This document shows positions 72-6,798 of a DNA stretch of 6,798 nucleotides, one piece after another. The position numbers and the translations under genes were made by a program. The stretch comes from Promethearchaeota archaeon (lineage in GTDB: Archaea > Asgardarchaeota > Odinarchaeia > Odinarchaeales > JBHLKK01). Within the stretch, counting starts at the first letter, position 1, and each line of letters starts with the position of its first letter. The stretch lies in the NCBI GenBank assembly GCA_048939465.1, contig JBHLPL010000107.1, positions 1 through 6,798 of the forward strand. Reading direction: 5' to 3'. The notes under the pieces are model-generated. The model was given only the letters and a program-made list of their open reading frames with translations, made no database searches and was not told where the DNA came from.

Positions 72-3916
<3,845 letters not shown>

Positions 3917-3921
3917 AACCG

Positions 3922-4224
3922 ATGATTGATGTAGATAAGGCGCTTAGAATAACAATTAAAAGCGGTAAGATCATAATAGGGTCAAAGAGAACACTAGAGG
4001 ACATTAAGAAGGGCAAAACCAAGCTTGTCATAATGGCATCAAATGTCCCATCAGAAATCTCAAAGGACATTGAATACTATGCAAAGATCGGCAAAATTCC
4101 TACGTATGTTTATCCAGGCACGAGCTGGGATCTGGGATCAGTATGTGGAAAGCCTTTTATGGTCTCAACACTAGCAATAACCGACCCCGGGGACTCAAAC
4201 ATTCTAAAACTTGCAGAGGTGTAG
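3922..4224 (+). CDS. rpl30e: 50S ribosomal protein L30e (eL30)
   Basis: 100 aa with GKIIIGSKRT, KLVIMASN, GTSWDLGSVCGKPF and DPGDSNI motifs. SD-like GAGGAG at 3907-3912. Canonical position after rpoA2. Confidence 0.97.
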   Translation: MIDVDKALRITIKSGKIIIGSKRTLEDIKKGKTKLVIMASNVPSEISKDIEYYAKIGKIPTYVYPGTSWDLGSVCGKPFMVSTLAITDPGDSNILKLAEV

Positions 4225-4231
4225 GAGATTG

Positions 4232-4666
4232 GTGGCGCATGTTAAGCTAACGGCAGACGAAATGCATTACATTTCACTGTTTGAGAGCATTACCGGGGCG
4301 ATCGCAAAGGACTGCATAATCGATGAAAACGGGGGAAGAATAATCTTTGTCGTCAAAGCAGGAAACATAGGCCTTGCCATAGGACGAGGTGGATCCAACA
4401 TAAAACGGGTAAGGAAGTTCGTAGGGAAGCTTGTGGATGTTGTTGAACATGCAGTTACCGCAGAGAGCTTCATCAAAAACATCCTCGTACCCGCAAAAAT
4501 CAAATCAATACACGTAACTGAAAGAAGCGACGGAAAGAAAATAGCGTCTGTCGAAGTAGAACCCAGCGATAGAGGAATAGCAATTGGAAAGAATGGCAAG
4601 AATATTATGAAAGCAAGAATACTCGCAAAACGCCATTTTGGAATAGATGATGTAAAGATTAAGTAG
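4232..4666 (+). CDS. nusA: Archaeal transcription factor NusA (two KH domains)
   Basis: KLTADEMHYISLFESITGA start, and two KH GxxG loops (AIGRGGSNI, AIGKNGKNI). The ORF-track start at 4211 overlaps rpl30e and is unlikely. The true start is probably GTG 4232 or TTG 4229, preceded by GAGGTG (4216-4221) and AGGAG (4223-4227). Ends in tandem TAG TAG. Confidence 0.96.
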   Translation: MAHVKLTADEMHYISLFESITGAIAKDCIIDENGGRIIFVVKAGNIGLAIGRGGSNIKRVRKFVGKLVDVVEHAVTAESFIKNILVPAKIKSIHVTERSDGKKIASVEVEPSDRGIAIGKNGKNIMKARILAKRHFGIDDVKIK

Positions 4667-4740
4667 TAGGTATTTCTTGCCTGCAGACATCAAAATGAAG
4701 CCTAGAATTGGGCTTGGAATAGATCTTGAAATCTGGGATT
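4667..4740. terminator. Candidate termination region between convergent nusA and rps12
   Basis: 74-nt spacer. On +, T-rich TATTTCTT (4671-4678) follows the nusA stop. Hairpin AAGCCTA-GAAT-TGGGCTT at 4698-4715 (7 bp with one G-U on +). On the minus strand the hairpin is followed by CATTTT. Confidence 0.35.
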
Positions 4741-5184
4741 TTATCGCACCGGTTTTTCTTTCTTTCCAATCAGCAGCGAATCTAAAGAAGCATTATTGAC
4801 CTTAATTACTTTCCAGCGAACGCCAGGAAGGTCTCCCTTGGCACGACCCCTTGCGCCACCTATGCCAACAACTGTGACTTCGTCATGCTCATCAACAAAG
4901 TTCAAAGCCCCATCGCCGGGTAGAAAAGCAGAAATCTGCTTGCCATTCTTGATCAATTGAATACGAACACACTTCCGGATTGCTGAGTTCGGTTGCTTCG
5001 ATTCCACACCGACCTTCTCTAGGACTATTCCTCTTGCTTGCGGTGCTCCTCCCAGAGGATCAGCTTTGACATCTAGTCTCAGCATTTTTCTTTTGTAATA
5101 CCTGTCACTCCAGAGGAATTTTTTCCTCTTCCGCTTAAGCTTCCTTGTCGAGAATTCACCCTTGGGAGCTTTTGAACCAGGCAA
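4741..5184 (-). CDS. rps12: 30S ribosomal protein S12 (uS12, archaeal/eukaryotic S23 type)
   Basis: 147 aa with [43 protein letters not shown] and [10 protein letters not shown] motifs. TTG start. Intact and full length. Confidence 0.98.
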
Positions 5185-5191
5185 TCTATAC

Positions 5192-5198
5192 CCTCCTT
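5192..5198 (-). promoter_or_regulatory. Shine-Dalgarno site of rps12
   Basis: AAGGAGG on the minus strand, 7 nt before the TTG start at 5184. Confidence 0.8.
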
Positions 5199-5226
5199 AG
5201 GACTGGCTAAGAAGTACAAAGATTCA

Positions 5227-5241
5227 TATTTAAAGCTTCTG
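5227..5241 (-). promoter_or_regulatory. Candidate archaeal promoter (BRE-like + TATA box) of rps12
   Basis: Minus strand reads CAGAAGC-TTTAAATA (TATA box 5234-5227). Typical archaeal spacing puts the start site near 5204, which is a C/A pyrimidine-purine step just upstream of the SD. Confidence 0.6.
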
Positions 5242-5290
5242 TCTAAACCGAAGCAAGGATTCATATACAGCTTGAGTGCAAATTCATAGC

Positions 5291-5329
5291 TTTAAATTAC
5301 TTAGGTTTAAATAGAGTATTGTTTAAAGA
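5291..5329. promoter_or_regulatory. Cluster of TATA-like boxes; candidate promoter(s) for the + strand membrane protein gene and possibly distal rps12 promoters
   Basis: Palindromic TTTAAA at 5291, 5306 (TTTAAATA) and 5322 in the divergent intergenic region. SD-like GAGGT at 5369-5373 lies 7 nt before TTG 5381. Confidence 0.45.
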
Positions 5330-5380
5330 CTAGCTAAAGCTTAAGAGGCAATAACCATTAGATAAACCGAGGTCGAGGAG

Positions 5381-6352
5381 TTGCCGAGGAAGAAATCGAA
5401 GAGAAAAACGAAGAAAGAGACAGAAGAGAAAGAAGAAGTTCCGGAAGTGGAGAGTGAAGAGGCGGAAAAGCAATTCTTTGGGCGAGCAGAAGTAGTTTAT
5501 AAGGCAAGTCCAAACTTCATCGTCAGATTGTGGTGGCTTTTCATAATATCAATAGCTGTGGCTGCATTAGGTGCTGTAAGACTGCTGCTATGGACCAGGA
5601 GTACGTTTTTTGACATCATTATGCCAATAACCACCGTAGTAGCTACATGGAATACTTACTATCTTTATGTTGTGTTAACAGGTATTCTATTCTTCGTTGC
5701 AATCGTTGTGCTGAGCCGTTACGTTACCAAAAACCGTTGGGTAGCTTATGCTCTTTTAGGAGTCTCAATCTTCTTCCTGATTCGCGTTATAGAAAACAAT
5801 GTTACTGCGATAATATTGCCTGCTGTCGATGTAAGCCTTCCATTCTATACCGGTATCATATACTGGGGGATGGTGATTCAAGTATTCATTGTACCTTTCT
5901 TGCTGGAGAGGGTAAACAAGGACTTGGAAAGGATATTTGTATCGACCCGTTATGGCTTTCTCCTCGATACGGGATGGCTAAGGGATTGGGACATTATTCC
6001 TTATTTCATCGTCAGCGGTGTAGAAATAGACATGCCAAAAAACCCAATAAGAAAGTTCTTCCACTGGATATTCAAACTTGCCGATGTCAAAATATTCTTC
6101 TGGAGAAAGATCGAGATTGGGGGAACGACAACAAGATACTATAGGCTGAGAGACTACCCGGACGCCCCCGATCTGGTAAGATATATAAAGAGACACAGAT
6201 ATCGATTGACGTACCTGCACAAGAGGCTACCGGGTATTAAATACTGGCGGGATAGGCGGAAAATCATAACAAAGATCAGAGACGGAAAAGGCCCGTTAAT
6301 CCTCAGTCCCGATGTCTTAGAAGAGATAAAAGACAAGACTCAAAAGAGATAA
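5381..6352 (+). CDS. Uncharacterised integral membrane protein (about 4-5 TM segments) with a probable bacterial-PH-like (bPH_2/YdbS-type) C-terminal domain
   Basis: 323 aa, TTG start with SD. Charged N-terminus, hydrophobic segments at nt ~5516-5905, then a soluble region (TRYGFLLDTGWLRDWDIIPY..VSGVEI...RKFFHWIFKLADVKI...RLRDYPDAPDLVRYIK). Its pattern resembles bPH_2 domains by eye. The CDS is well supported; the domain call is inference. Confidence 0.8.
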   Translation: MPRKKSKRKTKKETEEKEEVPEVESEEAEKQFFGRAEVVYKASPNFIVRLWWLFIISIAVAALGAVRLLLWTRSTFFDIIMPITTVVATWNTYYLYVVLTGILFFVAIVVLSRYVTKNRWVAYALLGVSIFFLIRVIENNVTAIILPAVDVSLPFYTGIIYWGMVIQVFIVPFLLERVNKDLERIFVSTRYGFLLDTGWLRDWDIIPYFIVSGVEIDMPKNPIRKFFHWIFKLADVKIFFWRKIEIGGTTTRYYRLRDYPDAPDLVRYIKRHRYRLTYLHKRLPGIKYWRDRRKIITKIRDGKGPLILSPDVLEEIKDKTQKR

Positions 6353-6421: not shown

Positions 6422-6798
6422 TCAGCCGAGCCTTGATACCTTTTTAAGAGCTAAGGAAGCAATTACTCCTGCTACGGAAATGACTGCTGTTAACACAAAG
6501 AGAGGCGTATATGATCCCGTGAGGTCTCTAAGAAAGCCGCCTAAATAGGGTGCGACAATAGCTGATGAAAAGGCAAGAGTACTGACCATCCCAAGAGCTT
6601 TGTTCACGTTTCCAGGAGAAACTATGTCTTTGGGAATCGTAAAACAAGGTCCAAAGCTCATATTGCTGCCCCAGCCAATAATCATGAGCGTGCCCAGCAG
6701 ATAGGCGAGGTTTGTTATCGGAGGGCCAGCAAGAATCAATATACTAACATTAATCCCCAACCCCACAGCCGTAACCAGGACTCTCTTTCCAGTTCTGT
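6422..6798 (-). CDS. Major facilitator superfamily transporter, C-terminal part; gene starts beyond the window
   Basis: The frame stays open to the window edge. Upstream of the ORF-track start it reads RTGKRVLVTAVGLG, resembling the loop 8-9 (D)RxGRR motif. About four TM helices follow, including the typical TM11-12 motif APYLGGFLRDLTGSY. Substrate cannot be assigned. Confidence 0.9.
   Translation of the reverse strand, partial: RTGKRVLVTAVGLGINVSILILAGPPITNLAYLLGTLMIIGWGSNMSFGPCFTIPKDIVSPGNVNKALGMVSTLAFSSAIVAPYLGGFLRDLTGSYTPLFVLTAVISVAGVIASLALKKVSRLG

Follow-up and report, generated by a model that had tools for sequence, protein, structure and literature searches.

Gene content of the locus

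The window analysed here is one entire contig (C44; 6,798 bp) of a MAG that comprises 152 contigs and 1.96 Mb, is 91% complete and has a GC content of about 43%. Genes were identified from a listing of open reading frames (ORFs) together with Pfam profile scans of the window. Its left part begins with the 3′ end of rpoB (1-60), consisting of the final 19 codons and the stop, and the frame-0 translation of this piece matches the C-terminus of the rpoB on another contig of the host genome, C66, up to ...LQELMS. It is followed by rpoA1, which encodes RNA polymerase subunit A′ (72-2732; an 886-aa ORF with Rpb1 domains 1-5 in the Logan gene calls), rpoA2, which encodes subunit A″ (2738-3916; PF04998, 1.4e-54), rpl30e (3922-4224; PF01248, 2.3e-21) and nusA, an archaeal KH-domain NusA homologue (4229-4666; PF07650, 3.5e-16; PF13184, 7e-11; Logan gene call of 145 aa), all five on the plus strand. 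The genes from rpoA1 to nusA are contiguous and co-directional, with spacers of a few nucleotides or with overlapping ORFs. An earlier sequence-only reading of this DNA had counted rpoB as a member of the plus-strand cluster, which is true of its last 19 codons only, and had placed nusA there as well, which stands as a plus-strand gene ending at 4666 with a start that is ambiguous among three start codons read in the sequence (TTG 4211, TTG 4229 or GTG 4232).

Adjoining the 3′ end of nusA, across a spacer of 74 nt from stop codon to stop codon (4667-4740), lies rps12 (uS12) on the minus strand (4741-5184), an intact gene of 147 aa with a TTG start, which matches PF00164 (1.1e-44) with 151 bits against a gathering cut-off of 22.3, over profile positions 3-109 of 110. 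The ORF listing and Pfam thus confirm what had been read from the letters, namely an intact minus-strand rps12 next to a plus-strand rpoA1-rpoA2-rpl30e-nusA series with the stop codons 74 nt apart; the term “head-to-head” that had been used for it is wrong, as nusA and rps12 are convergent, 3′ end to 3′ end (tail-to-tail). Upstream of rps12 and divergent from it is an orphan gene for a putative membrane protein of 323 aa (5381-6352, plus strand), without a Pfam family, and the contig ends within an MFS transporter gene, of which the 3′ part is present (6422-6796, minus strand; PF07690, 5.2e-10). The S7 gene (rps7) is absent from the whole 6,798 bp according to the ORF listing and Pfam, so that the reported lack of rps7 on either flank of rps12, with nusA on one side and the divergent gene on the other, is upheld. 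A search of the whole window against Rfam, spacers included, gave zero matches at E up to 1.

The 323-aa orphan is rich in Lys and Glu at its N-terminus and has hydrophobic stretches beyond it; a search of 5.8 billion proteins yielded just three homologues, of 82-97% identity, one of them labelled Promethearchaeota. It adjoins rps12 in the other same-genus genome but not in the other family, and by these matches it is genus-restricted.

As to rpoB, the window copy ends in ...QELMSLGIFPRVDIKERI and a stop, whereas that of C66 ends in ...QELMSFDFP and a stop and then runs into unrelated sequence, the two having 20 nt in common beforehand; this suggests that the assembly graph branches at the rpoB 3′ end owing to strain variation or an insertion. 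The host rpoB on C66 (C66:11153-17632, L194) is a single ORF of 2,159 codons, interrupted in frame after residue 464 by about 1,055 aa in which two stretches match an intein splicing domain (2.1e-27) and a LAGLIDADG endonuclease domain is also recognized, and the rpoB of a genome of the same genus (G002) is uninterrupted at 1,121 aa. These domain matches suggest that the rpoB of the host species carries one or two inteins.

Distribution of the inverted rps12

In GTDB, the class and the order of the host genome comprise the same seven species genomes, which fall into two families. rps12 is convergent with nusA in all six of these in which S12 was found, two belonging to the genus of the window and four to the second family, and among the latter is a closed single-contig chromosome (G003; 1,418,269 bp). 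The remaining genome, G001, which belongs to the genus of the window and is 78% complete, gave no S12 match, making the class count 6/7. A second rps12, which the earlier reading had proposed to look for, was sought in the whole host genome, and the single match was the window copy. The S12 protein shares 95% identity with the same-genus copy, 79-80% with those of the other family and 74-78% with those of several other Asgard families. In a tree built from the concatenated rpoA2, L30e, NusA and S12 proteins, the six genomes with inverted rps12 form one clade (support 96/93), which fits a single origin of the flip.

Convergence of nusA and rps12 was found in none of about 56 other Asgard genomes, which represent some 20 families; the two genes are adjacent in 16 of them, and in all 16 they are co-directional. 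In the proposed survey of relatives, the genes are convergent in all six class genomes with an S12 and co-directional elsewhere whenever they are adjacent, and the suggestion that the inversion could mark a lineage is supported by its presence in every class genome with an S12 and its confinement to that clade. The inversion was also absent from the best 80 S12-bearing JGI metagenome contigs (72-80% identity, all from other lineages), in which S12 is co-directional, and S12 followed by S7 is kept in 74 of these 80.

The other Asgard genomes show several layouts: the canonical cluster with S7, which is seen in many Asgard and Thermoprotei loci, S12-S7 detached from nusA, a solitary S12, nusA followed by S12 without S7 (Baldrarchaeia and two other families), and rpoA2 followed directly by S12 with neither L30e nor nusA between. 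The last of these, with no S7 after rps12, is found in three Asgard families (f4, f14 and f20; L025, L027, L087-L108). The relationship of the class to the lineages with nusA then S12 and no S7 (Baldrarchaeia and one other family) is a polytomy in the four-protein tree, and the nearest named relatives of nusA outside the class are those of Baldrarchaeota MAGs.

Two further loci came to light in this survey. In G056, one species of a different Asgard genus, rps12 converges on rpoA2 with about 870 nt between them (L109, G056:C2:502184-505615), and in three congeners of G056 rpoA2 is followed by a co-directional rps12 about 115 nt away; judged by gene order, this flip is independent of, and analogous to, the class-wide one. 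At locus L024 (G013:C61:31841-35266), tblastn gave the order L30e, partial nusA, partial L30e, nusA, S12-S7, as might result if the L30e-nusA pair had been partly duplicated in tandem.

Signals upstream of rps12

On the minus strand, a GGAGG Shine-Dalgarno sequence (5192-5196) is located 7 nt 5′ of the TTG start codon of rps12 (5184-5182), and a further element 42 nt upstream of this codon, TTTAAATA (5227-5234), is a candidate TATA box that itself follows a BRE-like stretch rich in purines. In an alignment of the rps12 upstream regions of the six class genomes, the 8-mer TTTAAATA is invariant and stands at the same distance from the rps12 start in every one, and the TTG start and the GGAGG are likewise present in 6/6, these elements being invariant or near-invariant, while the remaining upstream region is barely alignable between the two families. 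For a region otherwise so poorly conserved, the conservation of TTTAAATA and GGAGG in these aligned sequences exceeds chance, and the claim that rps12 has a TATA candidate and a Shine-Dalgarno sequence of its own can be extended from the window to the class. The archaeal TATA box is usually centred near -26, and by this geometry the position of TTTAAATA predicts a transcript start about 20 nt upstream of the TTG. Since the box, the GGAGG and the TTG are conserved in six genomes, rps12 most likely forms its own, monocistronic transcription unit.

The spacers of canonical Asgard relatives are informative about the earlier state. The nusA-S12 spacer is about 90-290 nt long in most of them, as against about 5-50 nt for the L30e-nusA spacer, and a TATA-like box can be recognized by eye in most of the canonical nusA-S12 spacers, of which a strict motif scan flagged few. 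Given their length and the usual presence of such a box, rps12 probably had a promoter before the flip.

The convergent spacer

The 74-nt spacer (4667-4740) contains short T runs on both strands. In the sister species the corresponding spacer measures 84 nt, and the other family has spacers of only 4-14 nt. All six class genomes carry a T5-T6 run 11-97 nt past the nusA stop, and in most of the six this run is the antisense of the Lys-rich S12 tail. These short stop-to-stop gaps and the positions of the T runs imply that the transcripts would end inside, or overlap, the partner gene.

A footprint of the inversion was also looked for. An inverted repeat of 15 nt with 80% complementarity (4669-4683/5178-5192) brackets rps12; since 1.2 kb holds 18 short pairs of this kind, this one included, and the flanks are not conserved between the families, it was read as a chance occurrence.

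Fate of rps7 and the other former partners

In the host genome, rps7 lies on contig C33 without ribosomal neighbours, convergent with three small ORFs and with a cupin gene upstream, and EF-2 lies on contig C68. The sequence-only reading had asked where these two genes were and had argued that an inverted rps12 without rps7 implies at least one more rearrangement; the solitary rps7, which lies on a different contig and whose surroundings are conserved class-wide, agrees with this. Since rps7 and the three small ORFs occur together in both families, rps7 had reached its present place before the families split. The ORFs of this trio encode about 100, 78 and 98-116 aa and have no Pfam family (L001 = G000:C33:12185-15721; L045-L048), and in the host genome the last of them overlaps the rps7 stop by 4 nt. 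In the closed genome, which belongs to the other family, rps12 is found at 320.6 kb, rps7 at 26.1 kb and S10 at 379.0 kb, so that rps7 is about 295 kb and S10 58 kb away from rps12.

The genes for EF-1a and S10 are on C83, the contig that abuts the right end of the window, and the MFS gene runs on into C83 via a 112-nt overlap of 98% identity. According to the contig overlaps and the sister genome, the order beyond the right end is MFS, PaaK-like, two oxidoreductase subunits, S10 and EF-1a, all on the strand of rps12. In the genus of the window, EF-1a/S10 are thus about 6.5 kb from rps12, with five unrelated genes between. Upstream of rps12 the two families have different neighbours; only the nusA/rps12 junction is ancestral.

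Origin of the arrangement

We regard the inverted rps12 as very probably a genuine, ancient and lineage-defining change of gene order, in which rps12 and its promoter were flipped together in the ancestor of the class, most probably Odinarchaeia, and the S12-S7 linkage was broken separately, with no functional novelty. Here the 3′ end of the rpoH-rpoB-rpoA1-rpoA2-rpl30e-nusA cluster would be the site where rps12 was turned around in place, in line with the earlier proposal of such an inversion; the gene still occupies its canonical place beside nusA, in reverse. In a separate event rps7 would have been parted from it, to become the solitary gene now found elsewhere. rps12 would now be expressed as a short-leadered, monocistronic mRNA transcribed towards nusA, with transcription driven by the TATA box 42 nt upstream and translation by the GGAGG Shine-Dalgarno sequence and the TTG. 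The reason why such a flip was tolerated is probably that the long canonical nusA-rps12 spacer already contained an internal promoter for rps12; with a promoter already in place, reversal of the cassette would alter expression little and be nearly neutral. The idea that the entire S12-to-S10 block was inverted in one larger step was rejected, as this would place S12 far from nusA, contrary to what is observed.

Several other explanations need to be weighed against this one. The host is a fragmented MAG of which the window is one whole 6.8-kb contig, and C66 diverges from the window after the 20-nt overlap, so that the assembly graph branches near the left end of the window; a chimeric contig or a mis-oriented segment could in principle have produced the inversion. 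The earlier reading had called for reads across 4667-4740 and 5185-5380 to exclude misassembly. Separately assembled Logan contigs from four public runs carry an identical S12 protein, every time convergent with nusA, and contigs from runs of four different studies, compared over 4100-5700, span both intervals; three of the four bridging runs may be the source of the window's own DNA, and the fourth has SNPs of its own. Neither alternative joints nor loose ends were found at either junction in these contigs. With both junctions bridged in this manner and the identical arrangement in five other genomes, one of them a closed chromosome, an artefact is practically out of the question and was rejected. 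Another explanation holds that the original rps12 was lost and that a horizontally acquired cassette was inserted, by chance in reverse, beside nusA. It would agree with a gene that carries its own candidate promoter and behaves as an autonomous cassette, and with upstream neighbours that are unlike between the two families. However, rps12 lies exactly at the canonical position and is the sole copy in the genome, its product shares 74-78% identity with S12 proteins from several other Asgard families, the placement within Asgard archaea is coherent in the concatenated tree, of which S12 is a part, and neither mobile-element genes nor significant flanking repeats were found. We therefore consider such a xenologous replacement very improbable.

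It has also to be asked whether the convergent layout is functional and maintained by selection, the overlapping 3′ ends of the nusA and rps12 transcripts coupling or mutually attenuating expression of a transcription factor and a ribosomal protein, and the 3′ coding end of each gene serving as an oligo-T terminator for its partner. The nusA/rps12 junction has been retained since the class ancestor while the upstream flank of rps12 was reshuffled; in the second family, with stops 4-14 nt apart, the 3′ ends must overlap or terminate within the partner gene; and the T5-T6 run past the nusA stop, mostly antisense to the Lys-rich S12 tail, recurs at 11-97 nt in all six genomes. On the other hand, T runs are common at about 43% GC, conservation of the Lys-rich tail is accounted for by the protein, and a short spacer is a small target for breakpoints, so that selection on the layout appears quite unlikely. 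Also unlikely is a reading in which archaeal rps12 would be an autonomous promoter-bearing cassette between AT-rich spacers that flips in place recurrently, with candidate cases in the ancestor of Odinarchaeia and, independently, in G056. If this were true, Asgard phylogeny would gain a reusable rare-genomic-change character in the orientation of rps12, and the 3′-overlapping nusA/rps12 transcripts in Odinarchaeia might have gained a regulatory role.

With the ancestral, neutral-looking flip as the preferred reading, the arrangement constitutes a structural synapomorphy for a deep Asgard class, consisting of an rps12 that converges on nusA and a solitary rps7 whose context is fixed, and as a marker it could help to bin, classify or sanity-check Odinarchaeia MAGs. 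The gene-order change appears harmless, revealing no new mechanism and opening no long-standing question.

Comparison with known ribosomal gene clusters

The bacterial S12 and S7 genes are transcribed together and linked in translation. The linkage of the two genes is conserved from bacteria to most archaea, and the present case suggests that it is dispensable when each gene has its own promoter.

The canonical archaeal str/L30e cluster has the order rpoH-rpoB-rpoA1-rpoA2-L30e-nusA-S12-S7-(EF-2)-EF-1a-S10 and, in “Ribosomal Protein Cluster Organization in Asgard Archaea” (2023, PMC10833476), is described for Aeropyrum pernix, Methanocaldococcus jannaschii and DPANN. The gene order in the window is the same through rps12, which directly follows nusA, but rps12 lies on the other strand, rps7 and EF-2 occupy other sites, and EF-1a/S10 do not directly follow. 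That article describes the str/L30e cluster as poorly conserved in Asgard archaea (PMC10833476), and the inverted rps12 adds one more data point to this published erosion of ribosomal and transcription gene clusters. For Ca. Odinarchaeum yellowstonii LCB_4 it gives a conserved core of rpoA1-rpoA2-L30e-nusA-S12 with no S7 (PMC10833476), which agrees with the closed relative G003 and with the window. S12 is treated there as a member of the contiguous core, and the text is silent on its opposite strand and on conservation of the layout across the class. Our literature search found no published description of the rps12 flip beyond this article. The novelty of the inverted rps12 is accordingly overstated in the earlier reading: the layout is widespread in the clade and visible in a public closed genome, and both the nusA-S12 adjacency and the erosion of the cluster have been published, whereas the strand flip itself goes unmentioned in the text (PMC10833476).

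A further parallel is offered by the Baldrarchaeia-type order rpoA2-L30e-nusA-S12, in which the S12-S7 linkage is likewise broken and S12 stays beside nusA; there, in contrast to the window, S12 is co-directional, with a TATA-like box in the nusA-S12 spacer. In the bacterial str operon (rpsL-rpsG-fusA-tufA in E. coli), the homologous S12 gene heads a cluster of translation genes (PMC10833476), whereas in the genome of the window S12 is solitary.
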